This document shows positions 7,102 through 56,534 of a stretch of 64,000 nt of DNA, piece after piece. The position numbers and the translations under genes were made by a program. The notes below the pieces were generated by a model. It saw only the letters and a list, made by a program, of their open reading frames with translations. It had not been told where the DNA came from and made no database searches. The stretch comes from an uncultured virus (IMG/VR IMGVR_UViG_3300031774_000002) (lineage: Duplodnaviria > Heunggongvirae > Uroviricota > Caudoviricetes), in IMG/VR virus record IMGVR_UViG_3300031774_000002. One strand, 5' to 3'. Each line of letters starts with the position of its first letter. The stretch's first letter is position 1.

Positions 7102-7190
7102 TTACGTGTTTCCCTTGGGCTTAACGTGTTAAAATTAGTTGTTGACTTATCTCAAATTAGACGTATAATAGAGGTGTCGTTTTGTAAGTG

Positions 7191-7198
7191 TATTTATA
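7191..7198 (-). promoter_or_regulatory. T4-type late promoter TATAAATA
   Basis: exact consensus in the intergenic gap upstream of 4516..7101. Confidence 0.8.
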
Positions 7199-7205
7199 AG
7201 TTTTG

Positions 7206-8132
7206 TTACTCTAACAACCCACCTTCTTCTAGTTCATTTCTGAAATATTCAATTGTCTTTTCCATCCCCTCTTCAAGAGTTACTAATTTAGAAGGATCCA
7301 TATCGACAAGAGCAAGAGTAGATGTATCTGCCTTTACCACATCACCAACATTCTCACCTGGACGCATAGGAAGATTAACAATCTTTGATTCACTATTAGA
7401 CATTCGGATAATAGTCTCAGCAACTTCTTGAACAGTGCTGTTTATTTCTGGACCAACTTCAACAGTCCTATCAAATACAACACCATCTGCTGCTTTCTCT
7501 ACAGCAGTAACAAGAGCTTTTGCTACATCACCAACATAAACCATATCAGAAACTTGCGAGCCATCACCATATACTTCCACATCTTGATTTGTTAATGCAC
7601 GGCACGCAAAAGAAGGTGTTATCTTTCGTACCTTACCAGAACCAAATGGTGCTACTGCAAGTTGTCTTGGACCATATGCATTCATAGCTCTTACTATATT
7701 AACTTTTGTTCCGCGAAACCGATTGAACATATCAATAAATCTTTCTATCATTGTTTTTGTAATTGAGTATGTATTATTCATCCAATGATTTCCAACACCG
7801 ATATATGCACCTGGAAGGTCATACTGTGCTGCAGCTTCGAGAACATTTAATCCACCAACCAAATTTGATTTAGCAGCAGGTCTTGGATTCTGAATAGTCT
7901 CTTGTGTGCCAAGAACAGCAGCAAGGTGGATCCAACCATCAACATGTGCCATTGCTTCAGTAACAGCAATGTCGTCCATAATATCGCCTGAGAATACTTC
8001 AACTTCTGGATCATACTCTGAATAATGTCTCCTATGATGATCAAATATAACAGGCTTGTGCCCTCTTGATTGAAGTTCTTCTACAACATATCTTCCAATA
8101 AAACCCATACCACCAGTAACTAAAATTTTCAT
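7206..8132 (-). CDS. NAD-dependent epimerase/dehydratase
   Basis: TGGMGFIG Rossmann motif, YSITK (YxxxK), NAYGP. Confidence 0.9.
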   Translation of the reverse strand: MKILVTGGMGFIGRYVVEELQSRGHKPVIFDHHRRHYSEYDPEVEVFSGDIMDDIAVTEAMAHVDGWIHLAAVLGTQETIQNPRPAAKSNLVGGLNVLEAAAQYDLPGAYIGVGNHWMNNTYSITKTMIERFIDMFNRFRGTKVNIVRAMNAYGPRQLAVAPFGSGKVRKITPSFACRALTNQDVEVYGDGSQVSDMVYVGDVAKALVTAVEKAADGVVFDRTVEVGPEINSTVQEVAETIIRMSNSESKIVNLPMRPGENVGDVVKADTSTLALVDMDPSKLVTLEEGMEKTIEYFRNELEEGGLLE

Positions 8133-8944
8133 GTAAGTTTTCCTTCGTTATAATATTGTTTCCACAAGTTTGTAAAATTTATTCCTGAATATATATATTC
8201 ATCTGTCCATGGGAGCTTTTTACCACCACCAATATAATGTAAAATATATGGATCTTTAAGCATGCCCATTTCTTTTGCCATAGCCAACCATGAAACATCT
8301 GTATTCATTTCAAACGGTAATTGAACAAAGTTTCCTCTTAATATCCAACCCAGATAACTTTGCACCACAAATGCTCCATCTGGCACATCTTTATCTAGTG
8401 TAGCATCAATAAACATATCAGTCAATTGTAATTCCATCCATTTTTTATTATCGAATAGCATTATTCCAGATTGACAAGCTGGTGTTTCGCCTAGACCGAG
8501 ATCAGTATCATAATCTCTTCTGAGCATTTGTTTTTCTTTATTCCATGGATTACCATTTAATGACATTGCGACTGGCATGTCGTGCATGTCTACATCCCAC
8601 AAAAAAGAAAAATCTTTTATAGCGATAGTGTCAGCATCCATCCACATAGATCTAGAATATTTTTTATGTGATAAGTTTGGTATCAATATTCGATTATACA
8701 TTGACGGCATACCGCTATCAGCTCTTCCATCTCCCCACCCTCTACCGCTTGGGTTACATGGTAATGAAACATTAAAGATAAGTTCTATATCTGGGTGTTC
8801 AAGTTGTTTGAATTCTTCTGGCTCGCCAGTACAATAAACTTGGAAATCAAAATTCCACTCAACTTCTTTTTTTAGACTATTGAAAAGAGCAATGACACCA
8901 GATATGTGTGATGGGGTGCATCCTGTAACTATATTATTTTTCAT
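8129..8944 (-). CDS. glycosyltransferase, GT8-like
   Basis: YNRILIP, WMDADT (DxD), QSGIMLFD, ILHYIGGGKKLPW. Confidence 0.8.
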   Translation of the reverse strand: MKNNIVTGCTPSHISGVIALFNSLKKEVEWNFDFQVYCTGEPEEFKQLEHPDIELIFNVSLPCNPSGRGWGDGRADSGMPSMYNRILIPNLSHKKYSRSMWMDADTIAIKDFSFLWDVDMHDMPVAMSLNGNPWNKEKQMLRRDYDTDLGLGETPACQSGIMLFDNKKWMELQLTDMFIDATLDKDVPDGAFVVQSYLGWILRGNFVQLPFEMNTDVSWLAMAKEMGMLKDPYILHYIGGGKKLPWTDEYIYSGINFTNLWKQYYNEGKLT

Positions 8945-9567
8945 CTAGTGGACCTTTGAAGTATTTTAATCTTTTTTTGTTGACCAACGAAAGGTTCGTT
9001 ATAATATCCTTCCATATCCATGGGTGCTTCTGTGTATACACAAGCATATAACCCACGCGGTTTGTCACTTGTATTCTCATTTGACGCATGAACAGTAGAT
9101 CCATTGATTGCTACAATATCTCCTGCTTTGGGCAGGAGTGTTTTCCACTTATCATCTTTATCTCTAATAAACAATGCACCATTGTGTCTGGTGAAATCAT
9201 CTATTGCGATACTAAGATTTACAGTGTGTATATCATTACCTTTGTTTCTCAATGAGTATTGATTGTCATAATGTGGTCCAAAGCTCATCTTATCATGCGG
9301 TAGTTTGTATATCATCTGATCATTGAATAGATGGGGTGTGCCCAATAGGTCAGTTGCAATATCCTTCATTATATCAGAAGTGTATATCTCGGTCAAGGGT
9401 TGTGAGAACTTCCCTGCACACGATATACCTTTCCATGTAGAATACTTATCACATTCTGTCCGCATATTATGTCCACAATCAGAGAGTATTTCAAGATCTT
9501 TTTTAGAAAAGACATTAGGTATGATTACCCATCCTTCTTTCTTATAGTGATCTATATTATTTTCCAT
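8941..9567 (-). CDS. PhyH-like 2OG-Fe(II) dioxygenase
   Basis: EGWVIIPNVF, HYD (HxD), AGD...VHAS..N....R. Confidence 0.85.
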   Translation of the reverse strand: MENNIDHYKKEGWVIIPNVFSKKDLEILSDCGHNMRTECDKYSTWKGISCAGKFSQPLTEIYTSDIMKDIATDLLGTPHLFNDQMIYKLPHDKMSFGPHYDNQYSLRNKGNDIHTVNLSIAIDDFTRHNGALFIRDKDDKWKTLLPKAGDIVAINGSTVHASNENTSDKPRGLYACVYTEAPMDMEGYYNEPFVGQQKKIKILQRSTR

Positions 9568-10306
9568 CTAGTGGACCTTTGAAGTGTTCTAAACCTGCTT
9601 CTGTTTTTAATCTTGATTCATTCCAAACATGACCGCTTTGTGTCTCATGTATTTTTGTATTAGCAACAATACCATATCTCTCAAACCTCTCACGCAACAC
9701 ATCAAATATATAACTGTCATGCCATTCAGATTCGCTAAAAATTAATAAACCATTATACATACCAGACATTGCATTCCAAAAATAATAATGAATTGGATGT
9801 TGTGTATCAAACATAACAAATCCGCATTCACTGTGTCTTTGTGTTCTAGAAAGGTATGCCATATAATCACCCTTTATCAATAAAGAAGGAAAGAATTGAT
9901 TATCAATATTTTTGGTTGCCTTTGTGTCAGCATCAATCCATATTAAATATCTTCCTTTCGGTGATTGTAGTGCTTGGAATATAGAATATATTTTGTAAGC
10001 AAATCTTGTAGCATCCCATTTGAACATAAGTTTTTTATCATACTCGTCAGAGTTTCTTTCAGCTGTTATAACACTACTTATCAAAGGTGTGGCGACATTA
10101 CTAAATGCTTCATACAAATTTGTGTCTAGTTTTTGATATTCAATTTTTTCACCTGAAAAGAGTTCATCGAACTTATCGAAGTCATCTATAAAAACAGTAA
10201 GTGAGGAGTTGTCAGGCAGGTATGAATTCATGCTGACGATCATGTTTTCGCCAAATGCACGATATTGTTTGATTGACATTGATGTAACTAAATGATATTG
10301 GTCCAT
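9557..10306 (-). CDS. GT-A fold glycosyltransferase-like protein
   Basis: RFAYK, IWIDADT (DxD), HSECGF, WHDS, HFKG. Confidence 0.65.
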   Translation of the reverse strand: MDQYHLVTSMSIKQYRAFGENMIVSMNSYLPDNSSLTVFIDDFDKFDELFSGEKIEYQKLDTNLYEAFSNVATPLISSVITAERNSDEYDKKLMFKWDATRFAYKIYSIFQALQSPKGRYLIWIDADTKATKNIDNQFFPSLLIKGDYMAYLSRTQRHSECGFVMFDTQHPIHYYFWNAMSGMYNGLLIFSESEWHDSYIFDVLRERFERYGIVANTKIHETQSGHVWNESRLKTEAGLEHFKGPLDGK

Positions 10307-16134: not shown

Positions 16135-17229
16135 TTATGCAAAAAAACTTTCTAACGAACTTTTCTTTTCAGACTGCCATCCAACCGACTTCAGAATATA
16201 CTTTAGTGGTTCAAGGAATGCTTTCTGAAACTGCAATTCGCGGTCTATGTAGGAGTTTAACTCAAATTCTTTGGGCAGTGTTGTCATAACACTGATGATA
16301 TTTTGCCTTGTTGGATTAGGCAATTTCAAATAACAAAACTTAATCTTCTCACCATCTTTGATGGACTCATATTTTTTGGTGAGCTTCATATCACGAAGCA
16401 TATGATTATATACCAACCCACCACGAACATGAATTGGTGTTCCTTTAGGAATTGTCAGCTCATCACCCAATACTGTATACTTATTCAAATCAGAAATTGA
16501 ACGAGGAAAGGCAATGTCCTCGAAGCTGAAAGTATCAAACTTTTCTCTGAATTCAGAAATATAACTCTGCACTTCATCTTCACCTTTTGTCATAATAATC
16601 TTGATGGCTTCTTTCAAAGCATCACGACAGACTGCTGGTGTTGATGACTTAACAGTCTCAATACCCATCATCTTCAATTGCGGTTCAGCATAACGCACAC
16701 CCTCATTATCATACACATTCATCATGTAGCGTTTCTTAGCAGTCCAGATAGCTTTATCTGCAATCGCTTCACGCTTCATAAACATCTTTTGGGAATATGC
16801 GTTTGTTAGGTGTGCCAGCTCTTCATAACTTTTATCAATAAAAGGTTCCAACTTCTCAGCTGCAACTTTGTCCAAGAAATTGACGACTTTGACAGCATCA
16901 CTTCCCTCTTCAAAGCATTTGCGTACAAGTTTGTCGAGATTGACATAAATTGAATCTGTGTCCGACGCAATAACATAATCAACTTCGTCTGTATCCAAGA
17001 TCTTGTTGAGATATTCATTTACTCTCCTTTCAATCCATCTAATTGCTAACTGACCAGACAATGTAATTGCCTCTGCCTTTCGTACATCAAAGAATCGAAA
17101 GTATTTATTACCGACTGCACCATAAGCTGAGTTGAGCTGAACCTTTTTTGCAAGTTGAAGATTCTTGTACTTGCTTATATCTTTAACAAGTTGCTTCTTC
17201 CGTTCAAGAAGTTCAGCTCTTTCAGTCAT
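16135..17229 (-). CDS. gp43: family B DNA polymerase, C-terminal subunit (gp43B)
   Basis: KVQLNSAYG (motif B), ASDTDS (motif C), KKRY, C-terminal SSLESFF. Confidence 0.93.
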   Translation of the reverse strand: MTERAELLERKKQLVKDISKYKNLQLAKKVQLNSAYGAVGNKYFRFFDVRKAEAITLSGQLAIRWIERRVNEYLNKILDTDEVDYVIASDTDSIYVNLDKLVRKCFEEGSDAVKVVNFLDKVAAEKLEPFIDKSYEELAHLTNAYSQKMFMKREAIADKAIWTAKKRYMMNVYDNEGVRYAEPQLKMMGIETVKSSTPAVCRDALKEAIKIIMTKGEDEVQSYISEFREKFDTFSFEDIAFPRSISDLNKYTVLGDELTIPKGTPIHVRGGLVYNHMLRDMKLTKKYESIKDGEKIKFCYLKLPNPTRQNIISVMTTLPKEFELNSYIDRELQFQKAFLEPLKYILKSVGWQSEKKSSLESFFA

Positions 17230-17501
17230 TATACTACAATCCCGCTTGTTGCTTGAATATATGCTTTCTCAACATCTTCATTGGTTTCAGTCATGAATAC
17301 TGTTCCACCAGTATAGAAAGAAACTGAGTCAACATTTGCTTTACCTGTCGCACAAACGCCATGAGCAAATCCCATACCCTGCTCGCCATGGACAAGCATG
17401 CGTGGATCTTTGATAACAATACTAGCATCTGTTTCTTCTTCAAACTTACCAACAAACTCTCCAGTGAGAGTTACTAATGAAACTACAGTTCCTTTCTTCA
17501 T
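17229..17501 (-). CDS. small Sm-like beta protein between the two polymerase halves
   Basis: 90 aa, VVSLVTLTGEFVGK...IVIKDP pattern; overlaps both neighbours. Confidence 0.6.
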   Translation of the reverse strand: MKKGTVVSLVTLTGEFVGKFEEETDASIVIKDPRMLVHGEQGMGFAHGVCATGKANVDSVSFYTGGTVFMTETNEDVEKAYIQATSGIVV

Positions 17502-18952
17502 AATTCTAATAACCTTTTGTTTATCTGTTCAAGTTCAGTCTGTGCTTCAAGCATTTTTTGCTTATAGCCCACACGCTCATTATACATCTTCTCCATCATC
17601 TCAGGCAAGAAACCTTGCTTGTCTTTTCTGAAGTATCTACCATTACCAGCCATAGCGAAACCATCTGGTGGTGTTTGTATATCACGATCAATTATATCCT
17701 CAACCGTGACATTTGTCAACCACTCATCTTCAACAAATGTTTCGGGTGATATATTGTACTGCATGATAAGGTGAGGATATAGTGAGTTCAAATCAAAACT
17801 CATAACCCAATCATGCATACCAACATGCGGATCTTTCACATAAGCACCAGCAAACTGAGAGTTTTTGATTGATTCGCTTTTTGGTGGTATGACAATATTC
17901 TTTGACATGAGATAATTATGTATAAGAACATCCCACATTGTAACTTGAGTGAAGACATCGTTGTAGTTCACTTTGGCATCATAAGCAATCGCCAACGCAC
18001 CTTCAATCAGCTTCATCTTATCTTCAAGCCTATCAACAAGCTCAACATCCTTTATGTTATAGTCAATAAACTTTTTGTAATCTAGTTTGTAGAGTTGATT
18101 CAAGTTATCATACTCTGAATAATCAATCTTCTTTTCGCCCAACTCAACTTCACCTATATGATCAAGACGATATGATTCCTGCTGTGAATATGTAAACTTC
18201 TTATACAGCTGGAGATAATCAAGCAAAGCAATCCCAGTCAACTCATAGATTGTCTCTTCACGATTAAAGTTCCGAATGGTACGCTCTTTGATCCATCCAT
18301 AAGGTGATAAACGCTTAACAAACTTTTCATCAAATAATCTGCCAATACGGTTTACAAGATATGGAATATCAAAACCCTCAATGTTCCACCCAGTAACAAT
18401 ATCAGGATCAAGTCTTTGCCACAAAGCAACAAAGGCTGATAATAATTTCTTCTCATCTCGACAGTTTATGTAGCTGACATTATCCTTTCCGCTGTCATCA
18501 TACTCACCAACACCCATTACATAATATTGACGCTTACCGTTGCGTGTTAAGGATAGTGTGATTGCTGTAACTTCTTGATCAGCTTTTTCTGGAGCAGGGA
18601 ATCCATCATCAGAGGCAACCTCAATATCGATATTAGCAATACGAATAACATCTGTGTCATACTCGCTACCAAATCGCTCATTGACACAAACATGTGCCCA
18701 TTTAGTTGAGCCATAGATCTTGAAGTTCGACACACCCTCATATTTTTGTACGAAATAACCAGCTTCACGAATATCACCAAGAGCGACTTCTTCAACATAG
18801 TCGCCCTCTAATGTTTTCCATTTAGTTGGTTTTGGTGACGGAACATACATTTTAGGATTGTAATCGATCTTATGATCAAATCGTCTGCCGTCTTGATATC
18901 CACGGATGTTTACTTTGTTCCCACGGACATGAGCATGAGTATAAAAATACAT
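17498..18952 (-). CDS. gp43: family B DNA polymerase, N-terminal subunit (gp43A)
   Basis: ExoI DIE, ExoII GWNIEGFD, ExoIII YNIKD, motif A SFDLNSLYP; ends in the fingers helix. Confidence 0.93.
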   Translation of the reverse strand: MYFYTHAHVRGNKVNIRGYQDGRRFDHKIDYNPKMYVPSPKPTKWKTLEGDYVEEVALGDIREAGYFVQKYEGVSNFKIYGSTKWAHVCVNERFGSEYDTDVIRIANIDIEVASDDGFPAPEKADQEVTAITLSLTRNGKRQYYVMGVGEYDDSGKDNVSYINCRDEKKLLSAFVALWQRLDPDIVTGWNIEGFDIPYLVNRIGRLFDEKFVKRLSPYGWIKERTIRNFNREETIYELTGIALLDYLQLYKKFTYSQQESYRLDHIGEVELGEKKIDYSEYDNLNQLYKLDYKKFIDYNIKDVELVDRLEDKMKLIEGALAIAYDAKVNYNDVFTQVTMWDVLIHNYLMSKNIVIPPKSESIKNSQFAGAYVKDPHVGMHDWVMSFDLNSLYPHLIMQYNISPETFVEDEWLTNVTVEDIIDRDIQTPPDGFAMAGNGRYFRKDKQGFLPEMMEKMYNERVGYKQKMLEAQTELEQINKRLLEL

Positions 18953-19976: not shown

Positions 19977-20176
19977 TAAAATTTCTCACTGTATTTTTTA
20001 TCAGTTAATGCAAAACCAACAAACATTTGATTAATCAAAATTAACATAACAAACGCTGTTGATAATAAAACTTGATCTTGTGACATACCTAAAACTTTAG
20101 CACCATAACCAAAAAACAATCCTGTTGGTACATACATAAAAATGGCAAACGCCAATTTGAGATTTAATTTACTCAT
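19976..20176 (-). CDS. small membrane protein
   Basis: 66 aa, two hydrophobic segments, overlaps neighbours. Confidence 0.55.
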   Translation of the reverse strand: MSKLNLKLAFAIFMYVPTGLFFGYGAKVLGMSQDQVLLSTAFVMLILINQMFVGFALTDKKYSEKF

Positions 20177-21009
20177 TCAGTTTCCTCATGATTTTTAAAT
20201 TTAATGTTTTGCTCTTTTTCTCGAGCATCTCTTTCATACTGAGATCTATACACATCATTGATCTCAATAACTTTGGACAACAAGCTCATTTTATCAGTGA
20301 AGCGAACAAACGCACTCGTGTCTTTTGGAAAACACGCTCCACCAAAACCTTTCTTGCCGTCAAATCCTGGAACTTTAGTGTGTGAAACATTGATTCTTTT
20401 GTCTGCACCGACTGCCTTGATTACTTCATTGAAGTTCACATTGTCATGCGTATTACAAGCATCATAAAGCTGATTGAAAAATACAACTTTAGTTGCCAAG
20501 AAAGAGTTGATTGCATACTTAACAAAACTCGCTTCTTCTTTGCTGAGTATATATGAAGGACAGTGATTGCATAGACTGTGTGTCTCATAATAACTCTTCA
20601 ACTTCTTACAAATTTCTATGTGACCTCCAAAGATATGAAACTCTGGATTAACAAACTGTTCACACGCTGACCTCTCAGTCAAAAACTCTGGGTTGTAGAC
20701 GATATTGACTTCATCATACTTACCGATAATCGATGGTGTCACTGTAGACTTAATAGCAATTATACCTGACATCCCATCTATCTTCTCAATAACATCATCA
20801 AGGATGGATGTGTCAATATCACCATCATCTTGCATCGGAGTAGGAACACAAATGAATGTTAAGTCAGGAGACCAGATTTTAAGGTCATCGATTTTATCTG
20901 ATTCTGAACCATATTTTGGATCAATTATTTTCTTTTCAACAAATGGACTGCTGAATCCATATTCAACAGCCTTACCAACAAAACCGTGACCAATGATTGC
21001 TATTTTCAT
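20173..21009 (-). CDS. UDP-glucose/GDP-mannose dehydrogenase family (short form)
   Basis: GHGFVG, CVPTP, KSTV, NPEFL, GFGGACFPKD. Confidence 0.9.
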   Translation of the reverse strand: MKIAIIGHGFVGKAVEYGFSSPFVEKKIIDPKYGSESDKIDDLKIWSPDLTFICVPTPMQDDGDIDTSILDDVIEKIDGMSGIIAIKSTVTPSIIGKYDEVNIVYNPEFLTERSACEQFVNPEFHIFGGHIEICKKLKSYYETHSLCNHCPSYILSKEEASFVKYAINSFLATKVVFFNQLYDACNTHDNVNFNEVIKAVGADKRINVSHTKVPGFDGKKGFGGACFPKDTSAFVRFTDKMSLLSKVIEINDVYRSQYERDAREKEQNIKFKNHEETE

Positions 21010-26186: not shown

Positions 26187-26777
26187 TTATTCTCCAGCAA
26201 CAATGTTGATGAGCTTTTGCATGCGCATCACATCCATAACAATATCATGGCGTGGGTCATGTCCAACAAATTTATCAGCTAACTCCTCAGGAACAAAAGT
26301 GTTCTTTAGTGGAGAGCCATAAGACAAACCTTCAATGAATGATCGAGTATCTCGAATCAACCACCAGTCAAATGGATCTTTCTCATCAGAGTGAGCAAGC
26401 AGTGTGCGAAGAAAGATGGGATCAAATGAATTACCTCTTGTCCAAACCTTTCTTACTGGTTCAACATCAATCTTATCACAGAACCAATTATACAACTCTT
26501 TAATAGATTTGTCAAGAGGAGACGGTTTCAATAAAGCCTGAGCTTCTTTGGGTTGATTCTTCCACCAGTCTAGTGTACTCTTTTGGATAGTGCGACCAAG
26601 CTCAATCTGTTCAGCAACATCAAAGCGAATCATATGTGAATCATCAAGCAACTCTTCATATTCATATGGGTTAGTTAAGAATCTTTTCTCATCATATTGC
26701 AAGACAGCCAAGCTAACCGCAACACCATTCACCATATCTTGACTTAATGTTTCGAAGTCATATATCACACTATTCAT
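26187..26777 (-). CDS. DexA-like 3'-5' exonuclease (DEDDh)
   Basis: YDFETL, RGNSFD, IRDTRS, HDPRHD. Confidence 0.8.
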   Translation of the reverse strand: MNSVIYDFETLSQDMVNGVAVSLAVLQYDEKRFLTNPYEYEELLDDSHMIRFDVAEQIELGRTIQKSTLDWWKNQPKEAQALLKPSPLDKSIKELYNWFCDKIDVEPVRKVWTRGNSFDPIFLRTLLAHSDEKDPFDWWLIRDTRSFIEGLSYGSPLKNTFVPEELADKFVGHDPRHDIVMDVMRMQKLINIVAGE

Positions 26778-28645: not shown

Positions 28646-28674
28646 ATTCTACTACATGATGGGTTAAATGTCAA
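28646..28674 (-). promoter_or_regulatory. sigma70-type promoter for gp44
   Basis: TTGACA-N17-TAGAAT. Confidence 0.75.
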
Positions 28675-29420
28675 GTATTGCTCCTAACATATTCTTCAAT
28701 ATCATATTTTGGTGACCAGCCAAGATCTTTCAAGTCAGAATTATCAGCAGTGTTATCCCATGCCTCACATTCTTCACCTGCTCTAACCTCTGCATTACAT
28801 CCAGCTAATTCACCCAGCTCAGATACAACCACACCTTTACCAGTTCCAATATCATAGACTGGTTTTAATTTATTCAGATCTTTATCCATAAGTAAGATTA
28901 TTGCGTCCACTACATCATCAACATGAATGAAGTCACGGATATGATTTGTTAAGTAATCAACACGACCATCAATCAAGCGACCAATGAGCATTGAATCTCT
29001 TGCTCCCTCACCATAAACTGTAGTGAACCGTAAACCCACTTGATTGTAAAATGCAGTTTCTTCATTTATCTTTTTGCTCATACCATACGGTGATAAATGC
29101 CAGTTATGGACACAAGAAGAAGATGCATACAATAATGGTATCTCACTGTTGTGGCAATATTTTTGAAGTTTAGTTGTAAGTGAAACATTATTATCCCAAT
29201 ACTTTTGTGGATGGTTAATGCTTTCTCTAACATTCGCAAATGCTGCAAGATGAATCACATAATCAGTGTCTAATTCCAATCTATTAGTTCTGGGATCAAG
29301 ATCTTCTAAAGATTTGCCAATCTTAGAGTCCCACTCATCAACAATGTGACCTAATGATTCAAGTCTTGACTTTACATGACTGCCAATAAAACCACGAGAA
29401 CCTGTGACTGTTACTCTCAT
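28671..29420 (-). CDS. NAD-dependent epimerase/dehydratase
   Basis: TGSRGFIG, YASSS, YGMSK, RDFIHVDD. Confidence 0.9.
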   Translation of the reverse strand: MRVTVTGSRGFIGSHVKSRLESLGHIVDEWDSKIGKSLEDLDPRTNRLELDTDYVIHLAAFANVRESINHPQKYWDNNVSLTTKLQKYCHNSEIPLLYASSSCVHNWHLSPYGMSKKINEETAFYNQVGLRFTTVYGEGARDSMLIGRLIDGRVDYLTNHIRDFIHVDDVVDAIILLMDKDLNKLKPVYDIGTGKGVVVSELGELAGCNAEVRAGEECEAWDNTADNSDLKDLGWSPKYDIEEYVRSNT

Positions 29421-29677
29421 AAAACTTTCCATCCTGTGACAGTGTTAGTGCGGAATGATCTCCAAGCCTGAACATCTATCCCCCAAACTGGAATGTCTGC
29501 TGAATTTGCATTCACAGCTGATACTGTGATACTAGATCCAGCTTGCTCACTTATAATCTCGGGGTTGAGAGTACAAGGCATCACCCTTGTACCCCCACCA
29601 TCAACTTTCTCATATGTGACTTCGACAACGCCATCTTTGAGATGTTTTACCAGATTATTTACAGCTGATGACAACAT
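29417..29677 (-). CDS. small SH3/WYL-like beta-barrel protein
   Basis: VTYEKVDG..R.M.CTL...AWRSFR. Confidence 0.65.
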   Translation of the reverse strand: MLSSAVNNLVKHLKDGVVEVTYEKVDGGGTRVMPCTLNPEIISEQAGSSITVSAVNANSADIPVWGIDVQAWRSFRTNTVTGWKVL

Positions 29678-29694
29678 TTTATCCTTTCCTCATA

Positions 29695-30252
29695 TTATAC
29701 AATCGCATAGATATCTGTACTTTCTACCCAGCAAGTATATCCATATTTTTTTAATCGTTCCAGAAGAAGATTACAATCTACATGGGAATGTTCTATCTTA
29801 ATTAATGTTGGTTTTATACCAAAGCTAAACCCCTCAAAGACATTTGCTTCATGCCCTTCAACATCAATCTTTAGAAAGTCTATATGGTCAATATTATTCT
29901 TACTGATGTAAGAGTCTAATGTCATAGCAGGAACTGTTATCTTTGCATGGTTAAAGCGTATATTATCTGGAATATCCAGAAGTTTTTCTCCCATATGTTC
30001 ATCAGTGTCAACATGTCCGATACCTCTGACCCAGCTATCAGTTGCTATGCTCTGTCTGAATGGGACATAACCATCTATATCTGAAATGGCAAGATTATCA
30101 ACTTGGATATCATATGGCTTTGCTTGTTCAGACATAGTTTCAGCATATCGTGGATCAGCTTCAACCATGTAGCCAGACCAACCAGATTTTGCTAGAGGAA
30201 GGCATGTTCCAAAATCGCACACGCCTACCTCTAGAAAGACTTTATTAGGCAT
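29695..30252 (-). CDS. FkbM-family methyltransferase
   Basis: FLEVG, MVEAD, IDFLKIDVEGHE. Confidence 0.85.
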   Translation of the reverse strand: MPNKVFLEVGVCDFGTCLPLAKSGWSGYMVEADPRYAETMSEQAKPYDIQVDNLAISDIDGYVPFRQSIATDSWVRGIGHVDTDEHMGEKLLDIPDNIRFNHAKITVPAMTLDSYISKNNIDHIDFLKIDVEGHEANVFEGFSFGIKPTLIKIEHSHVDCNLLLERLKKYGYTCWVESTDIYAIV

Positions 30253-30907
30253 ACTTGCTCCCAGCTTCAGTTGCAACCCAATACTCAACAACAGATCCTT
30301 TGAAGTTTGAGATACCTTTAGATGATACATTCACCTTATAATCATCAGCCATGAACTTGAGATTTTCAGTCTTAAAGATAAACTCAAACTCAGCTTCAGT
30401 GACACCAACACTCAATCCAAACTCATTAGATGTTGGATTCTTGGTATCAGTAGCAACCAAAGAGATAGATCCATCAACACCACGAACAACAACTTCTGGT
30501 AATGATAATTGATTTGCAGCATTGACCACTTTCTTATAGTCGGCTTCACTCATATCAAAAGTTACTTCTGGATCAGGCAATTCAAGATCCTTTTCTGGTG
30601 GTGATACAACCATAGATGGATCAGTGTAAGTGTAACGCGAAGTGCTGTTACCACCATTCTCTTTGATAGTCATAGATTTGTCACCAAAGTCTATGTCTGC
30701 ATCATCAAACAAGCTAGTGAGACCAATAAACTGATTCAACTCATAGATCGCAAAGTCTTGAGGAAACGACTCATTCACAACAGCAGAAGCAAGAATGTTC
30801 TTCTGTGGTGACACTGTACGCAAAACATTACCTGCTTTGAATACAAGAGACGGATTAATGGTGGAAAAGTTTTTCAAAACTTCAAAAGTGTTATCGCTTA
30901 ATTTCAT
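30245..30907 (-). CDS. gp45: sliding clamp
   Basis: MKLS..T..VLKNFSTIN, FAIYELNQF, YWVATE. Confidence 0.93.
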   Translation of the reverse strand: MKLSDNTFEVLKNFSTINPSLVFKAGNVLRTVSPQKNILASAVVNESFPQDFAIYELNQFIGLTSLFDDADIDFGDKSMTIKENGGNSTSRYTYTDPSMVVSPPEKDLELPDPEVTFDMSEADYKKVVNAANQLSLPEVVVRGVDGSISLVATDTKNPTSNEFGLSVGVTEAEFEFIFKTENLKFMADDYKVNVSSKGISNFKGSVVEYWVATEAGSKYA

Positions 30908-31386
30908 GGTGATTCCTCATTATTTAAATCGTGATTGTGTAATGCAATCAATGCATAGTGTAATACTTTCAATAAATCCTTGCGGTTGTAACCGTCTTTC
31001 CTGCCATAACGCTGAACATACTTCAATACATTACCCAACGCAAACCCCTCGCCATGACCACAGTCAATAATGAACTCTGTTGACTGAAACTTATTCTTTG
31101 AATAGTGCTCAGAATAAGTAGCATTAACATAGTCACGCAATTCATCAATCAACTCACCCTCATTAAATTTGTAGAGTGTTATGTCAAAAACATCAGAAGA
31201 TTTGTTAGAAGGAACTAATGGCTCATTATAATGTTCCAAAGAGTCATTATACCTTATTGGCTTGTTTCTGTCAACCTCAGAATAATATTCAGCAGTGTGT
31301 TCATAATTATCTTTCTGTTTGGAAGATGATTTTTTTCTCAGCTGATTCCATTCCTGAGGAGTAGCATCGTCAATACTTTTGCCCAT
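30904..31386 (-). CDS. DUF3310-like (T7 gp1.7-like nucleotide kinase) protein
   Basis: HY...GFALGNVLKYVQRYGRK...DLLK. Confidence 0.65.
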   Translation of the reverse strand: MGKSIDDATPQEWNQLRKKSSSKQKDNYEHTAEYYSEVDRNKPIRYNDSLEHYNEPLVPSNKSSDVFDITLYKFNEGELIDELRDYVNATYSEHYSKNKFQSTEFIIDCGHGEGFALGNVLKYVQRYGRKDGYNRKDLLKVLHYALIALHNHDLNNEESP

Positions 31387-36697: not shown

Positions 36698-36705
36698 TAT
36701 TTATA
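36698..36705 (-). promoter_or_regulatory. T4-type late promoter TATAAATA
   Basis: exact consensus upstream of hsp20. Confidence 0.8.
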
Positions 36706-36711
36706 CTGACT

Positions 36712-37260
36712 CTACATAAGATTTTCAATAAAGCCAATAATTTTTTTCGTATCTTCAGGGACATTGTGTTCAAAAGCATGGACACATCCAGCTTCGCCCA
36801 TCAATATTTTTTCCCCAAACATATCTTCAATGTTAGCAACTTTCGTTACTCGCCCATTGATAAATGTTTCTGATTGATCAGAACCTCTATCAGCATAACG
36901 CTGTTCACGAACAGCATCATCTGTTTTTAATACTATAATTGTTAGATCATGCCCTGCTCTCTTCACAGCCTCAAAGAACTTAGAAGAAGTCAATCTGTCA
37001 CCCTCGAACACTACGACAGGTGATGGATTGTTTTCTAGGTATTCAATTGCCATTGGCTGTACTGCCATTGACAGTTTATCAGTACCAGCAAACACTTCTC
37101 CTTCATCATATTTACCAAACAAACGGATATCTCCAGAAACATAACCATCAAGCAACTTAACTGGAGTATCTTTAGTCCACTCTCGTTTTGACATCCACTC
37201 ACGCATAAGTGTTGTTTTTCCAGTTCCTGGAATTCCAATAATACCAATCACTTTACTCAT
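36712..37260 (-). CDS. P-loop kinase, putative 5-hydroxymethylpyrimidine-DNA kinase
   Basis: GIPGTGKT, GTDKLSMAVQP, FEGDRL; context next to TET/JBP and AADT genes. Confidence 0.75.
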   Translation of the reverse strand: MSKVIGIIGIPGTGKTTLMREWMSKREWTKDTPVKLLDGYVSGDIRLFGKYDEGEVFAGTDKLSMAVQPMAIEYLENNPSPVVVFEGDRLTSSKFFEAVKRAGHDLTIIVLKTDDAVREQRYADRGSDQSETFINGRVTKVANIEDMFGEKILMGEAGCVHAFEHNVPEDTKKIIGFIENLM

Positions 37261-38645
37261 GAAAAGAATCCTTCTAATGATGACTTTGTCACAACAGCTT
37301 CTGGATGATATTGCGATAACATTCCTTCACCGCCTTTCTGTTTCAGATAATCATACCACTCATCTTCAGCCCACATATTTGGCGAAACACCATTCCAAAA
37401 TTCTTTCCACAACTTGTGGTTCTTATTGAGTCTGCGATCATCAACATATTGTCTACGCAGTTTTTCATATTCCCAAGAACCAACCTCAAGCATTTTTTCA
37501 CGGAAGTAGCATACAAGAGATATGCGTTCCATTTCTTCAATAGTGGTTCCAGCAGGTGGTTTCAGTTCAGTGTTACCATGAATGCCACCATGATTATTGA
37601 TCAACAAAAGATCTCCTGGACGGATATTGATACCTACACGAAACTCTGGAAGGACAAGATAACCACCTTCCCAATTCTTTTCTTTAGCAACAACAGTAAG
37701 GTTTGAAAATCCTTCATTCAAATCACCAGCATCTCTGTGAGCTGCAGTTCTGAAGTTTTTATTTACAGTAATCGTAGTGAACGGTGTATCTTCACCAGCA
37801 ACACGAAAGCGTGGATCTAGCTTGCTTGCAGCTTCGTTTTGAATACCATAACGAATAGGTAAATGCTCCTTAAATTTGTCAGCTAATTGACGCATGAAAG
37901 GATAGCACTTCTCATAGACAGGATAGTTGTTCTCTGTATACGCAGTTGCTCGACCGTATGGAATACGAGGATATCGATCAAAGAATCCAGCAATACCTGA
38001 CAACACCATGTTAGCATATGTTGTCTCAGAGATATAGTTCTTTTGAGTTGCCTTTGCGTCTTTCTGAGCATCCTCTGCTGACATACCTTGCCATTCAGCA
38101 ACCTTGTCATTGAAGAATGATTCGTAATTATAACCACTATCAGTGATCTTAGATCTGATCCAAACTATACCACGAGATTCACCTGCTGTAATTGAAGCAT
38201 GTTTTGCTCTGATTCTTTCTACTGGATCAGTGTCATCTTCAAACAGAGAAACTTCACGCTCAGCAAAGTGCTTCATAATATCAAGCTGTTCTTCAGTTAC
38301 CCAATCACGACCGCCTTGCTTTGCTCCTTTTGGACCAGCAGCAAGACCACGATTTTGTGTAGGTAATGCAGCACCTAATAATCCTTCATAAGCACCGTGC
38401 TGTTGTTCTTCAGTAAAAACATTTTTGCGAAACTTAAAGATAATGTTATCTTCATTATTCTCACCACCAAACCCAGCAGGAGCATAGAAGTCAGTATCTT
38501 CTTCACAAATAAAATCCCAGTCAGTATCTTCCATATATTGACCGAGTTTGTGTTCACAATCATCCCAAAACTTGGCTGTAATGATTCTGACATTGTTTAC
38601 ATTATCTACCTTAACATCATACTTTTCGTTTATCACACCAATCAT
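37257..38645 (-). CDS. TET/JBP-like 2OG-Fe(II) dioxygenase
   Basis: FTTITVNKNFRTAAHRDAGD (HxD), GDLLL...IHGNT (distal H), RISLVCYFRE (2OG-binding R). Confidence 0.8.
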   Translation of the reverse strand: MIGVINEKYDVKVDNVNNVRIITAKFWDDCEHKLGQYMEDTDWDFICEEDTDFYAPAGFGGENNEDNIIFKFRKNVFTEEQQHGAYEGLLGAALPTQNRGLAAGPKGAKQGGRDWVTEEQLDIMKHFAEREVSLFEDDTDPVERIRAKHASITAGESRGIVWIRSKITDSGYNYESFFNDKVAEWQGMSAEDAQKDAKATQKNYISETTYANMVLSGIAGFFDRYPRIPYGRATAYTENNYPVYEKCYPFMRQLADKFKEHLPIRYGIQNEAASKLDPRFRVAGEDTPFTTITVNKNFRTAAHRDAGDLNEGFSNLTVVAKEKNWEGGYLVLPEFRVGINIRPGDLLLINNHGGIHGNTELKPPAGTTIEEMERISLVCYFREKMLEVGSWEYEKLRRQYVDDRRLNKNHKLWKEFWNGVSPNMWAEDEWYDYLKQKGGEGMLSQYHPEAVVTKSSLEGFFS

Positions 38646-39652
38646 ATCATAAATCTCTCTATTCCAACATTACTCATTTCATTTGTAAAAGTATTCATAT
38701 GGTCTATCTTCCCAGTGTCTAGGAATATCTCCATTTTACTCTTACTTATCGAATTAGTCAAGTATTCATTTCTCAATGTCTCTTTTCTAGCATCCCACAT
38801 GGGTGTCCAGTCAATACCATCCCATCCATCTCTCTCCACTTGCTTTATTTCTTCAGCTTGTCTGTCAATATAATAACCAAGATAACGACCTCTACTCTTG
38901 CGAAACAGTTTCTTAAATGAACACAGTGCTGTTTCCATAGCAAAAAAGTCTGCTTTGCTCTCAGCATTTGGGTGTGTGCGTTTTACATCTTCGAGTATTT
39001 TCTTTCCTTCTCCTTCCATCCATTGTATTTGATCATCTTCGAGCTTTTTATTCACCCAATCATCTTTACCTAAAGCATAACAAAGACCATTCCGATGAGA
39101 TCGAGATCCAGAATAGTCATGTAACCATAGACTTGGAACATCAACATTGAGACCAGCACACTGCTTTAGAGTTTGGATATAAAACCAAGATGTGTATCTT
39201 CCGAACTTGTGTAATGAAGTTACAGAATCCCAAACTTTTTGGAAGTTTTGATATTTGTCGCCACGACATAACTCTTCAAATGCATCTTCTTGTTTCCTAC
39301 CACCAACCCATTCTTTATAGGAAACAAATTGATCAGCAAGATGACCTTTATTCCATTTTGTATCTGTTTGATATCTGAGACGCGAATAGTTTTCATTGTT
39401 CCATTCACGCAAACGATCAACACCAACCAACTCCATATCAGGGAACTCATTCCAGATAAGGTATGCTGTTGGGAAGTTGTATGTTGTTCCATATAACCAA
39501 CAGAGCCATAACTTCTGTTCTGTGTTATATTCAAACCGATCAAAGAAGTAATTTGTGAGATACAATGCTGAGTCACAATCTTCTATCTCAAGACTCCACT
39601 TAAACCAGTTGACAAATGCTTGTCTACGATGTTCACTTAATCTATAATCCAC
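38642..39652 (-). CDS. aG/PT-PPlase family (amino acid:DNA transferase, HhH-glycosylase-like fold)
   Basis: WLCWLYG, YQTD, KFGRYTSWFY, ETALCSFKK, RYLGYY. Confidence 0.75.
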   Translation of the reverse strand: MDYRLSEHRRQAFVNWFKWSLEIEDCDSALYLTNYFFDRFEYNTEQKLWLCWLYGTTYNFPTAYLIWNEFPDMELVGVDRLREWNNENYSRLRYQTDTKWNKGHLADQFVSYKEWVGGRKQEDAFEELCRGDKYQNFQKVWDSVTSLHKFGRYTSWFYIQTLKQCAGLNVDVPSLWLHDYSGSRSHRNGLCYALGKDDWVNKKLEDDQIQWMEGEGKKILEDVKRTHPNAESKADFFAMETALCSFKKLFRKSRGRYLGYYIDRQAEEIKQVERDGWDGIDWTPMWDARKETLRNEYLTNSISKSKMEIFLDTGKIDHMNTFTNEMSNVGIERFMI

Positions 39653-40308
39653 TAAAAGAATTCCTCTAGAGTGTTTGGCTCATCACCTATTAATTTATCA
39701 CGCATCCAAAACTCTCCTACAGAAGAAATAGCTTCTTCTACAGTAGCAGTCTTTTTCTTACCAAAGCCATGAGACTCAAGCGATTCATCAAACAATTGTT
39801 TGATCACCTTTGGATCTTTAGGCAAAGCCAGATGCGGGACATTAATTGCTGTTGCCCTAAATGTGCACTGCTCCCTGATAGAAGGAAACAGTGGTTGATC
39901 AGAACGCAACGACCCAGTTGGATCAACAGCCCAAAATATCAAACCATTTCTTTTATGCCAAGTTATAGAAGATGGAGTGCAAGATATTTTCAAACGACTC
40001 ATGCCATTATTAAAAGCATCACTCATTACTCTTTCCCAGATAGCTGTAGCATATCCCTTTCCTTCATGACCTTGCCTAGTTACAATCTCATATAGATTAA
40101 TATATCTCGATCTTTGACTATAAGTAGCAAACACAAATGCAACCATTTCGCCATCAACCTCTAAGGCAAATGGCTTATTATCTTTTTCATAGTTTTTAAA
40201 ACGAAACCACAAACTGTGTGATGAATTGAGGAACTTTGTATTTTTTCCTTCAGGGGAGTTCTCAATGACTTTCTCAATCATCTCTTGTGAACATCTTACT
40301 ATGCGCAT
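39652..40308 (-). CDS. GNAT acetyltransferase
   Basis: LYEIVTRQGHEGKGYA (acetyl-CoA motif A). Confidence 0.75.
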   Translation of the reverse strand: MRIVRCSQEMIEKVIENSPEGKNTKFLNSSHSLWFRFKNYEKDNKPFALEVDGEMVAFVFATYSQRSRYINLYEIVTRQGHEGKGYATAIWERVMSDAFNNGMSRLKISCTPSSITWHKRNGLIFWAVDPTGSLRSDQPLFPSIREQCTFRATAINVPHLALPKDPKVIKQLFDESLESHGFGKKKTATVEEAISSVGEFWMRDKLIGDEPNTLEEFF

Positions 40309-40991
40309 TGTAAGTCTCTCACTAATGCACCACCACGCAATGGAGAAGATTTCTCTAGCTTTCCATTGTATGTGTATGTTACATACATGTCTGTTCTTTG
40401 TTGATTTGTAATTGCACTTCTTTTTAGAATATCTTTTGTTGATGCGAATACAATACCATTATTTCGCTCACTATACCATAGTGGTCTTGCTTCATTTCTA
40501 AATCCAGTTAGACTCTTATCTTTTTTGATACGACAGACAGCCATACTTGATGGGTAAAAATCATTCAATGGATCATTACCAGCCTCATATGATTTCAATA
40601 TCAATTCACTGTCATTAGCTGTTTCAGTGTTATATTTCCACTTCTCTTTATCTTCTTGTGATATAACACCATTGTGAACAATACTTTGATCACCATTAGA
40701 GAAAGGTTGATTGTATCGAAGATCAGATGTTGAATAGCGAATATGACCAATAAGGTAGATACCACCATCCTCATTTATCATACTCTGAATTGGATATTTT
40801 GCGAGGAACTCATCACAAGGGATGCCCTCTTTTATCGTATATATCTTAGAATCTTTGACATATGATACACCAGTCGCATGTTTCCCTCTTATCATAGATT
40901 CGCGGAAAATACGCTCTACCAGTTTAACATTCTCAATACTACCACGACTGACAGAGGATCTCTCTAACCAAACGCCTATCACACCACACAT
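40299..40991 (-). CDS. stand-alone class II (Ntn) glutamine amidotransferase
   Basis: MCGVIG (Cys2 nucleophile), RG..ATG, GHIRYST, NQPF, HNG, DSE, RPLW. Confidence 0.85.
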   Translation of the reverse strand: MCGVIGVWLERSSVSRGSIENVKLVERIFRESMIRGKHATGVSYVKDSKIYTIKEGIPCDEFLAKYPIQSMINEDGGIYLIGHIRYSTSDLRYNQPFSNGDQSIVHNGVISQEDKEKWKYNTETANDSELILKSYEAGNDPLNDFYPSSMAVCRIKKDKSLTGFRNEARPLWYSERNNGIVFASTKDILKRSAITNQQRTDMYVTYTYNGKLEKSSPLRGGALVRDLQCA

Positions 40992-41019
40992 AATATACCC
41001 TTTATGTAAATAAACAGAT

Positions 41020-41048
41020 ATTATACATTATCAAATGTAATTTGTCAA
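41020..41048 (-). promoter_or_regulatory. consensus sigma70 promoter for the modification operon
   Basis: TTGACA-N17-TATAAT. Confidence 0.8.
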
Positions 41049-44378: not shown

Positions 44379-44407
44379 ATTATACTACAATTCAATACAA
44401 GTGTCAA
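44379..44407 (-). promoter_or_regulatory. consensus sigma70 promoter for gp47
   Basis: TTGACA-N17-TATAAT. Confidence 0.8.
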
Positions 44408-49654: not shown

Positions 49655-49662
49655 TATTTATA
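49655..49662 (-). promoter_or_regulatory. T4-type late promoter TATAAATA
   Basis: upstream of gp23. Confidence 0.8.
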
Positions 49663-56526: not shown

Positions 56527-56534
56527 TATTTATA
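56527..56534 (-). promoter_or_regulatory. T4-type late promoter TATAAATA
   Basis: upstream of gp18. Confidence 0.8.

Follow-up and report, generated by a model that had tools for sequence, protein, structure and literature searches.

A five-gene cassette of a marine T4-like phage that may rewrite thymine in DNA, with a candidate glutamine-dependent ammonia:DNA transferase

The window, a stretch of 64,000 nucleotides from an uncultured virus (IMG/VR IMGVR_UViG_3300031774_000002), belongs to a marine T4-like phage. Five tightly packed minus-strand genes were found by ORF calls between 36712 and 40991 (Table 1). Neighboring genes overlap by 10, 1, 4, and 4 nt in order from the glutamine amidotransferase (GATase) to the P-loop kinase. 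The operon promoter is the sole 12/12 match to TTGACA-N17-TATAAT between 35900 and 41700. The window has five such perfect sites, each on the minus strand, compared to 0.11 by chance. The promoter overlaps the 3' end of a peptide deformylase gene and the GATase ATG is located 29 nt further downstream. The ORF calls and the promoter match confirmed the sequence-only reading of a single consensus promoter and five overlapping genes. Based on this consensus early promoter the cassette is probably transcribed early. Of the T4-type late-promoter motif TATAAATA the window has 14 copies, each on the minus strand, where 4.9 were expected. The site beyond the kinase stop codon is that of hsp20 and lies outside the cassette, placing the downstream edge of the operon there.

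Table 1. Features of the operon and its borders
Feature	Position	Strand	Details
Sigma-70-type early promoter TTGACA-N17-TATAAT	41020-41048	-	12/12 consensus match
GATase	40299-40991	-	230 aa, N-terminus MCGVIG
GNAT	39652-40308	-	218 aa
AADT	38642-39652	-	336 aa, GTG start
TET/JBP dioxygenase	37257-38645	-	462 aa
P-loop kinase	36712-37260	-	182 aa
T4-type late-promoter motif TATAAATA	36698-36705	-	Between kinase stop codon and hsp20

The five family assignments held when checked with HMMs, all Pfam matches exceeding the curated cut-offs. The first gene product matched GATase_6 (PF13522, 1e-9) and PF13537 (2.6e-6) and is assigned by its sequence as a stand-alone class II (Ntn) glutamine amidotransferase with Cys2 as the putative nucleophile. 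It has the N-terminal Cys, the Arg/Asn-Gly/Asp glutamine-site residues, and the profile match of this class. Among 37 homologues Cys2 was nearly invariant, conserved in 90% or more of the rows, one of which has no N-terminus. R35-G36-x-H38, H83-x-R85-Y-S-T-S, H106-N107-G108, N126-D127-S128-E129, and the C-terminal D226-L-Q228 were invariant. The solved structures closest to its profile were PurF glutaminase domains (6lbp, E 7e-7). The GNAT matched Acetyltransf_1 (PF00583, 2.5e-8, 34.6 bits against a cut-off of 20.7), and its nearest Atlas clusters were viral GNATs.

The amino acid:DNA transferase (AADT) matched ADDT (PF18724, 1.2e-23, 84.5 bits against a cut-off of 26.2) and phrog_3271 (2.2e-65). 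This family was formerly named aGPT-Pplase2. The N-terminus following the GTG start, MDYR, agrees with that of homologues. E240-T241-x-x-C244 aligns with Glu243, Thr244, and Cys247 of PaMx11 gp46, which are the metal ligands and the catalytic thiol, respectively (Wen 2024, PMC11472151). All three residues were invariant among the AADT homologues aligned. The dioxygenase matched Tet_JBP (PF12851, 2.4e-23, 82.6 bits against a cut-off of 34.9). The HxD..H..R motif was confirmed in 47 homologues, with H303, D305, and H356 invariant and R374 nearly invariant. Its AF2 model (pLDDT 93.2) had CcTet 8jkk, TET2 7ne6, and NgTET1 4lt5 as best Foldseek matches (E 7e-10 to 4e-9), with CMD1 also among the top matches and a probability of 1.00 for all. 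The modeled fold points to an Fe(II)/2-oxoglutarate dioxygenase (5mYOX) with a TET-type double-stranded beta-helix. The kinase, with the Walker A motif GIPGTGKTT, matched Ploopntkinase3 (PF18751, 5.7e-18, 65.6 bits against a cut-off of 27). It was 30% identical over 141 aa (pairwise E 2e-5) to PaMx11 gp49, which is listed as a 5-hmdU DNA kinase (Lee 2021 Table 1, PMC8989533). Profile, motif, and homology place it in the 5-hmdU DNA kinase family (PF18751).

Gene linkage was examined in two samples of viral contigs. A scan with the AADT gave at least 574 contigs with a relative, from which 80 loci were kept. Twenty-eight had full flanks, with 5 kb or more upstream of the AADT and 2.2 kb or more downstream. 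A scan with the GATase gave 221 contigs, from which 80 loci were kept, 35 with enough flank. The samples have contigs in common and are not independent. The GATase, TET, and kinase were all present in 28/28 full-flank loci of the first sample, and the AADT, TET, and kinase in 35/35 of the second. These four genes form an invariant core, which is a new observation. The co-occurrence of all five genes suggested by the sequence-only reading held for this core but not for the GNAT, present in only 12/28 and 14/35 loci. An amidoligase-like gene fills the slot after the GATase in 16/28 and 21/35, and none of the full-flank loci in either sample (n = 28; n = 35) carried both. Since both types form amides on an amine, their alternation fits a primary-amine intermediate. 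The GATase could also serve a downstream amide-forming enzyme and not the AADT.

The GATase and AADT were predicted to bind each other with a model confidence (ipSAE) of 0.87, while the best control scored 0.00. Of solved complexes 116/157 reached this level, as did 2/215 mismatched pairs, a calibration that is rough here as our own alignments were used. In three runs at least 98% of contacts were common and the partner pLDDT was at least 89. Contact positions of the GATase include residue 1 (beside Cys2), 33-38, 86, 88, 109, 112, 167-170, 184-187, and the DLQ tail at the C-terminus, and those of the AADT include 38-45, 68-75, and 278-284. In the model the glutaminase active-site face of the GATase would lie against the AADT. 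Most predicted interface residues were invariant in both families. D38-R39-F40-E41 of the AADT is not kept in Cr30, phiMAM1, Cygsa01, and PaMx11 gp46. The AADTs of these four have no GATase neighbor. The AADT profile had no match among solved chains at E<=1, so no solved structure of detectable sequence similarity was found that the prediction could have copied.

In PurF (glutamine PRPP amidotransferase) ammonia from the glutaminase domain displaces pyrophosphate from PRPP. The GATase resembles it as an Ntn glutaminase with an N-terminal Cys, and in both cases ammonia would displace a (pyro)phosphate leaving group. PurF differs in that one chain holds the glutaminase and acceptor domains and the acceptor is a sugar phosphate, whereas two proteins are proposed here and the acceptor would be a base in DNA. 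The best reading of the predicted complex is that the GATase and AADT form a two-subunit, glutamine-dependent ammonia:DNA transferase, in which the GATase would be the glutaminase subunit. An Ntn enzyme supplying ammonia to the AADT was one option in the sequence-only reading and fits both the PurF likeness and the modeled contact.

Taken together, chances a little better than even are given to a pathway in which the cassette rewrites thymine after the phage DNA is made (T -> 5hmU -> phospho-5hmU -> 5-aminomethyl-dU -> N-acyl base). Its computed support comes from the families and catalytic residues of the proteins, the linkage of the genes, and the modeled contact between GATase and AADT. The TET/JBP would hydroxylate the thymine methyl group in DNA and the kinase would phosphorylate the 5hmU to 5-phosphomethyl-dU. 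Cys244 of the AADT would then attack C6, the phosphate would be expelled, and an amine would be added. The amine would be ammonia released from glutamine by the AADT-bound Ntn amidotransferase, giving 5-aminomethyl-dU. The GNAT would acylate this primary amine, most simply from acetyl-CoA, to 5-acetylaminomethyl-dU. Other hypermodified phage DNAs suggest protection against host nucleases as the likely purpose. The glutaminase role proposed here is new, while the pathway type itself has already been published. The earlier reaction order fits the family assignments, residues, and linkage but is less novel than was claimed.

The invariant glutamine-binding residues of the GATase argue against a second, unlikely scheme. 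Here the AADT would install a free amino acid (Gly, Ser, Glu, or Gln) on 5-phosphomethyl-dU and the Ntn enzyme would trim or amidate the adduct before the GNAT acts. Stand-alone Ntn GATase-like amidohydrolases such as EgtC do exist, and trimming of a Gln or Glu adduct had been one option of the earlier reading. The closest solved relatives of the GATase, however, are true amidotransferases (PurF), and the modeled complex suggests that its active-site face, turned to the AADT, is not free for DNA. By Pfam assignments the GNAT-type cassette also lacks an ATP-dependent synthetase for amidation. In favor of the scheme, the characterized AADTs all use an amino acid or polyamine (Lee 2021 Table 1, PMC8989533). 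The acceptance of plain amines such as putrescine, listed in the same table, supports the ammonia reading. Also against the scheme, Lys150 and Trp146, which hold glycine in PaMx11 gp46, correspond to F157 and Y153 in a local alignment that is only 20% identical overall.

Genome records were searched for a source of 5hmU. The window's own record is 110 kb and 61% complete, so absences there are weak evidence. No ThyA-family enzyme, ThyX, C5-methyltransferase, DAO-type flavoenzyme, or TAGT was found in it, and with no DAO-family or ThyA-family match neither a PaMx11-type FAD lyase nor a dUMP hydroxymethylase was detected. All five operon genes fall in families other than DAO, ThyA, or PLP enzymes, in agreement with the earlier statement that the operon has no methyltransferase, dUMP hydroxymethylase, flavin, or PLP enzyme. 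In five larger related records, including one 98% complete (amidoligase/ParB type) and one 85% complete (GNAT type), no ThyA-family enzyme or C5-methyltransferase was found. ThyX was encoded in 4/5 and therefore ordinary dTMP is made.

It is very improbable that the dioxygenase acts on 5-methylcytosine and the cassette hypermodifies cytosine. In favor of this, the characterized Clade A/B phage TETs oxidize 5mC, and it was suggested that kinase and aG/PT-PPlase might act on 5hmC in some contigs (Burke 2021, PMC8256090). Against it, no C5-methyltransferase was found in any of the six records, the AADT and kinase families were characterized on 5hmU (Lee 2021, PMC8989533), and the GATase/kinase/AADT-linked clade was assigned to thymine (O'Toole 2026, PMC13229309).

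A ParB-like gene lies directly upstream of the AADT in 15/16 amidoligase-type loci of the AADT sample and 19/21 of the GATase sample. The fold of its product matched Noc, KorB, ParB, and sulfiredoxin (best E 3.8e-4). ParB_N (PF02195) had no match in the 110-kb record at E<=1, nor did the profile of the sister-loci protein in the window or record at E<=10. The window's cassette is a version without the ParB-like gene and falls outside the ParB-dependent 5mYOX subclass. The TET/JBP might then be inactive alone, with another 5hmU source or an unrecognized activator encoded elsewhere in the genome, of which 39% is unseen. ParB-dependent 5mYOXs are known, and some Clade C1 members without ParB had no detectable activity in E. 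coli (O'Toole 2026, PMC13229309). The supplement of that study gives 0% 5hmU for 5mYOX190 even with its ParB. By eye only, 5mYOX190 resembles the operon TET. Inactivity is nevertheless considered improbable. In a quick TET tree the ParB-containing, GNAT-type, and glycosyltransferase-type cassettes were intermingled, in places with TETs separated by less than 0.1 substitutions per site, so ParB goes with the amidoligase module rather than with the TET lineage. ParB is likewise missing where a TET orthologue has only the TAGT glycosyltransferase as its partner, the catalytic residues of the operon TET are intact, and no ThyA-family hydroxymethylase was found in the five larger relatives.

Several elements of the cassette have precedents. 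The sequence-only reading held that characterized phage TETs act on 5mC. This does not stand, as TET89 oxidizes thymine (Burke 2021, PMC8256090) and phage 5mYOXs, including 5mYOX97 and 5mYOX176, oxidize T in DNA (O'Toole 2026, PMC13229309). TET_JBP contigs lacking a dUMP hydroxymethylase, beside thymidine-hypermodification genes, were described from metaviromes (Lee 2021, PMC8989533). Phage thymine dioxygenases were linked with GATases, kinases, and AADTs (O'Toole 2026, PMC13229309, Dataset S10). In the sequence-only reading no biochemical description of the combination was known. As a gene combination, TET_JBP with kinase, AADT, and glutaminotransferase and without a dUMP hydroxymethylase is already described in these two studies. 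No biochemical account of a GATase or GNAT step was found in the literature searched.

The cassette resembles PaMx11 gp46-gp49 in its 5-hmdU DNA kinase, the E-T-x-x-C motif of the AADT, and the GNAT acting last (PMC8989533, PMC11472151). A 5-aminomethyl-dU intermediate is probably common to both and the end product, 5-acetylaminomethyl-dU, possibly so. PaMx11 obtains its 5hmU from a dUMP hydroxymethylase (gp51, annotated as thymidylate synthase) and the amine from glycine through the FAD lyase gp47, whereas the cassette has the TET/JBP and the Ntn glutamine amidotransferase instead. The GNATs are not specifically related (operon GNAT against gp48, E 0.45).

The ParB-dependent 5mYOX Clade C1 clusters share the TET/JBP, GATase, kinase, and AADT and have no C5-methyltransferase (O'Toole 2026, PMC13229309). 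The sister loci of the window match their make-up exactly, ParB-like gene included. The window's cassette differs in having a GNAT in place of the ParB-like and amidoligase-like genes. The clade of the operon TET was judged by eye only, against one sequence of the supplement to that study. The TET of the base J-type route (TET/JBP with TAGT, PF20691) is an orthologue with 60-70% identity and often occupies the same T4-like genome position after gp46/gp47. There TAGT and sugar-nucleotide enzymes replace the kinase, AADT, and GATase, whereas the window's record has no TAGT.

Five consecutive minus-strand ORFs were found at 36712-40991, with successive overlaps of 10, 1, 4 and 4 nt. The Pfam scores of all five products were above the curated cut-offs. 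A PHROGs search gave families in agreement, mostly without names. A TTGACA-N17-TATAAT sequence with a 12/12 match to the consensus was located at 41048-41020(-), 29 nt 5' of the first ATG of the operon. The sequence-only reading had described five overlapping genes behind one promoter, and this was confirmed in full by the ORFs, the Pfam matches and the promoter. Perfect sites of this type numbered five in the window, all on the coding (minus) strand, compared to 0.11 expected, which argues for early promoters over chance. They look like the consensus early-promoter set of a T4-like marine phage. The T4 late-promoter motif, TATAAATA, occurred 14 times in the window, on the minus strand only, compared to 4.9 expected. 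The copy at 36705-36698(-) lies directly 3' of the kinase stop codon and 5' of hsp20, and marks where the operon ends. Some other copies were directly 5' of structural genes, for example gp23 and tail sheath.

Cassette genes and promoter motifs in the window
Feature	Position	Strand	Details
Ntn glutamine amidotransferase (GATase)	40299-40991	minus	230 aa; Pfam GATase_6, 1e-9
GNAT	39652-40308	minus	218 aa; Pfam Acetyltransf_1, 2.5e-8
Amino acid:DNA transferase (AADT, formerly aGPT-Pplase2)	38642-39652	minus	336 aa; Pfam PF18724, 1.2e-23
TET/JBP dioxygenase	37257-38645	minus	462 aa; Pfam PF12851, 2.4e-23
P-loop kinase	36712-37260	minus	182 aa; Pfam PF18751, 5.7e-18
Perfect TTGACA-N17-TATAAT sites	17691-17719, 26487-26515, 31246-31274, 41020-41048, 44379-44407	minus	consensus match
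TATAAATA sites, examples	49655-49662, 56527-56534, 36698-36705	minus	motif match

The 110-kb IMG/VR record containing the window has a CheckV completeness of 61% and carries T4-type replication, recombination and structural genes. The nearest major capsid protein was that of Stenotrophomonas phage DLP6 (64%), followed by those of pelagimyophages (62.5%) and of Methylophilales phage Melnitz and cyanomyoviruses (~61.5%). Window positions 820-64000 map to the contig record; bases 1-819 fall outside it and carry ORFs. The cassette is flanked by gp46/gp47-peptide deformylase on one side and hsp20 on the other. The family B DNA polymerase was found in two ORFs of 484 aa (exonuclease and polymerase start) and 364 aa (remainder) with a 90-aa ORF between them (16135-17229, 17229-17501 and 17498-18952, minus strand). 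Either a split gp43 or an intervening element could account for this arrangement. Sugar-nucleotide and tailoring genes were interspersed with the replication genes at 4516-10306, 20173-21009 and 28671-30330 on the minus strand. They encode two NAD-dependent epimerases, a GT8 glycosyltransferase, a PhyH-type dioxygenase, a UDP-glucose dehydrogenase-like product, an FkbM methyltransferase and an 861-aa protein with a cytidylyltransferase-like domain and DUF5824.

In the TET protein H303, D305 and H356 were invariant and R374 nearly invariant among 47 homologues. Its AF2 model (pLDDT 93.2) was most similar to CcTet, TET2, NgTET1 and CMD1. The long N-terminus is part of a single fold and is common to ~25 representative clusters of like length. 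A fused ParB-like domain was considered for this region and rejected, as the model shows a single TET-like fold along the entire chain, alignable to TET2 over ~440-500 columns. A Walker A motif is present in the kinase, which shares 30% identity with gp49 of phage PaMx11, reported as a 5-hmdU DNA kinase (Lee 2021, Table 1, PMC8989533). In the AADT, E240-T241-x-x-C244 aligned by MAFFT with Glu243, Thr244 and Cys247 of the PaMx11 AADT gp46, described as two metal ligands and the thiol attacking C6, respectively (Wen 2024, PMC11472151). The AADT subfamily profile matched no PDB chain at E<=1. An hhalign comparison with gp46 was not significant (probability 0.4%), and the residue mapping was therefore taken from the MAFFT alignment anchored on invariant motifs. 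By profile and Atlas neighbours the GNAT belongs with ordinary viral GNATs, and no specific likeness to the PaMx11 acetyltransferase gp48 was found. Searches of cultured phages with the operon nucleotide sequence and with the GNAT (tblastn) gave no matches. Besides Caulobacter phage Cr30, the nearest cultured-phage relatives of the kinase were gene 1 products of many Mycobacterium phages, annotated 'adenylate kinase' or 'terminase small subunit' (e.g. matches H106-H143). Matches of the AADT search likewise included 27 Mycobacterium phage records. Thymidine hypermodification may have gone unrecognised in these phages.

The dUMP and dCMP hydroxymethylases belong to the ThyA family. No ThyA-family enzyme, ThyX, C5-methyltransferase, DAO-type flavoenzyme or TET-associated glycosyltransferase (TAGT) was found in the 61% complete record of the window. 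Due to this incompleteness, five larger related records holding the cassette core of GATase, AADT, TET and kinase (CheckV 69-98% complete) were also searched. ThyA-family and C5-methyltransferase matches were found in 0/5 each, and ThyX in 4/5 (L131, L130, L132 and L133). The ThyX of the window phage probably sits in the missing part of its record. These phages would therefore make ordinary dTMP, with no known route to 5hmdUMP or 5mC. This supports the earlier proposal that the dioxygenase makes 5hmU on the polymer.

The distribution of the cassette was surveyed from three of its proteins. The TET scan gave 45 viral loci of 60-100% identity, 21 of them flanked by 5 kb or more on each side. AADT, GATase and kinase were present in 11 of the 21, with a window-type GNAT in 6 of those 11, and all three were missing from the other 10. 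TAGT (PF20691) and sugar-nucleotide enzymes were found in 8/9 AADT-less loci examined, DLP6 included. The AADT-less locus L016 had sugar enzymes and no TAGT match. The AADT-alignment scan matched at least 574 contigs; 80 were kept, 52 were dropped for too little flank, and GATase, TET and kinase were present in 28/28 of the remainder. The GATase-alignment scan matched 221 contigs; 80 were kept, 45 were dropped for the same reason, and AADT, TET and kinase were present in 35/35 of the remainder, the two samples overlapping in contigs and not being independent. Hundreds of contigs from marine T4-like viruses carry the core.

Gene order varied among the loci. The slot after the GATase always held either a GNAT or an amidoligase-like gene and never both. 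The window-type GNAT occupied it in 12/28 loci of the AADT sample and 14/35 of the GATase sample. The amidoligase-like protein of ~290 aa, whose PF12224 matches were all under the cut-off (E 6e-4 to 0.04), occupied it in 16/28 and 21/35, respectively. Co-occurrence of all five genes, as expected by the earlier reading, held for the four-gene core in every locus of both samples but for the GNAT only in these fractions. The cassette is real, intact and widespread, and its general type is already known.

Caulobacter phage Cr30 (locus L047; NC_025422, 51.8-60.7 kb) is a cultured T4-like phage with an orthologous TET, gp129. It also encodes an AADT (gp123, 409 aa) and a kinase homologue annotated as terminase small subunit (gp114), with no GATase. 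Its further products include an inositol-1-phosphate synthase (gp121) and a protein with weak TAGT likeness (gp122). This relative is laboratory-tractable, and its tailoring set differs.

A protein of 425-495 aa was encoded directly upstream of the AADT in most amidoligase-type cassettes (15/16 in the AADT sample and 19/21 in the GATase sample). It gave weak ParB_N matches (E 2e-4; 4/13 members), and its profile was closest to Noc and SbnI. Its AF2 model (pLDDT 81) was most like Noc, KorB, ParB and sulfiredoxin (best E 3.8e-4). The alignment consensus of this ParB-like family (L108:4656-6026, L090:4719-6014 and relatives) contained an N-terminal GIY-YIG-like motif, and one member had a weak PF01541 match (E 0.002). 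Even with the threshold at E<=10, neither the ParB-like nor the amidoligase-like protein had a counterpart in the window or in its record. A quick maximum-likelihood tree was constructed from 74 TETs, with sequences of <400 aa and duplicates dropped. The three cassette types were intermixed on it, and its starred branches require a minimum of 11, 8 and 5 cassette-type changes, which suggests that the downstream modules were swapped often. The distribution of the ParB-like gene follows the amidoligase module rather than TET ancestry.

The GATase had no match in a single-sequence search of the PDB, and its profile matched only PurF glutaminase domains among solved structures. Cys2 was nearly invariant among 37 homologues (one row lacked the N-terminus), and the class II glutamine-site residues R35-G36, R85, N107-G108 and D127 were invariant. 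The C-terminal D-L-Q tail of the family (D226, Q228; window 40299-40310) was also invariant in the 37 sequences. The complex of AADT and GATase was predicted in three runs with each partner supplied as a 37-row alignment. The score was 0.87 (runs 0.88, 0.81 and 0.87), and the best control scored 0.00. The runs had at least 98% of contacts in common, with partner pLDDT of at least 89. In a benchmark 116/157 solved complexes and 2/215 mismatched pairs reached the mark, a rough guide since our own alignments were used. As no solved chain resembles the AADT by profile, no solved structure was found that the predictor could have drawn the interface from. As a prediction, the model supports AADT-GATase binding.

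On the GATase side the predicted interface includes residue 1, adjoining the nucleophile, R35-H38, Y86 and T88 beside R85, V109 beside N107-G108, R169-P170, S184-T185 and the DLQ tail. On the AADT side it comprises 38-45, 68-75 and 278-284. The interface residues were mostly invariant in both families. AADT D38-R39-F40-E41 was not conserved in 4/4 aligned AADTs from systems without a GATase (Cr30, phiMAM1, Cygsa01 and PaMx11 gp46).

In PurF a phosphate leaving group is displaced by ammonia. A reading that we put forward tentatively, at a little under even confidence, is that GATase and AADT form a two-subunit glutamine-dependent ammonia:DNA transferase, the acceptor being a nucleobase inside duplex DNA, with 5-aminomethyl-dU, a primary amine placed straight on the phage genome, as a product that is diversified by swappable amide-forming modules. 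We infer four steps. TET would hydroxylate T to 5hmU, the kinase would convert this to 5-phosphomethyl-dU, and the AADT would convert that to 5-aminomethyl-dU with ammonia from the bound glutaminase. The GNAT would then give an N-acyl, probably N-acetyl, aminomethyl-dU; in sister cassettes the amidoligase and ParB-like protein would form the alternative module acting on the amine. Ammonia is favoured over an amino acid by the resemblance of the GATase to PurF, with its similar displacement of phosphate, by the predicted complex, in which the active-site face of the glutaminase is buried against the AADT, and by the two amide-forming enzymes alternating in the next slot. Such alternation fits a core whose product is a free primary amine. 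Simple amines, putrescine among them, are reported as AADT substrates (Lee 2021, Table 1, PMC8989533).

Hypermodification of thymidine after replication is established, and for TET-primed versions there are predictions and a partial demonstration. Iyer et al. 2013 (NAR 41:7635) reportedly gave the first prediction of TET/JBP-kinase-aGPT-Pplase systems, and may already discuss the GATase and GNAT neighbours. A literature search, with Iyer et al. 2013 outside its reach, found no paper giving the GATase a role. Lee 2021 (PMC8989533) reports reconstitution of the kinase, AADT, FAD lyase and acetyltransferase steps, places TET_JBP beside such genes on metavirome contigs without dUMP hydroxymethylase, and gives the function of its amidoligase and glutaminotransferase domains as unknown. 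Oxidation of T by TET89 is reported by Burke 2021 (PMC8256090). O'Toole 2026 (PMC13229309) describes stand-alone and ParB-dependent phage T-dioxygenases and a ParB-associated clade with consistent linkage to GATases, P-loop kinases and AADTs. Among its mined contigs with TET/JBP-family dioxygenases (5mYOX), GATase is listed in ~10-12% and GNAT in ~6.5-7.5% (Dataset S10). The word 'ammonia' is absent from the preprint version, and the IMG/VR sample numbers of 6 of the 45 TET loci were not found in the supplements. The pathway of the sequence-only reading, T to 5hmU, phospho-5hmU, amine and N-acetylated base, remains the best one, but its claim to novelty was overstated in view of these three studies. 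What remains new is the GATase-AADT pairing as a candidate ammonia:DNA transferase, the choice between GNAT and amidoligase modules, and the existence of ParB-less cassettes.

Among marine T4-like phages the cassette is common. It has a bearing on the evasion of restriction by marine phage DNA and on the sequencing of such DNA, both in nanopore signals and in restriction-based library preparation, as well as on enzymatic labelling tools for DNA. If the proposed reading is true, such bases may be present in a considerable fraction of these marine T4-like myoviruses, and the alternation of two different amide-forming enzymes in the next slot would be accounted for. The ParB-like protein of the sister cassettes matches the ParB-like activators found beside T-dioxygenases by O'Toole 2026. 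The ParB-less cassettes bear on the generality of the ParB dependence recently reported for thymine dioxygenases. Use of ammonia by GATase and AADT would be a new way of putting an amine on DNA, and, compared with the PaMx11 route, would dispense with one enzyme and one cofactor.
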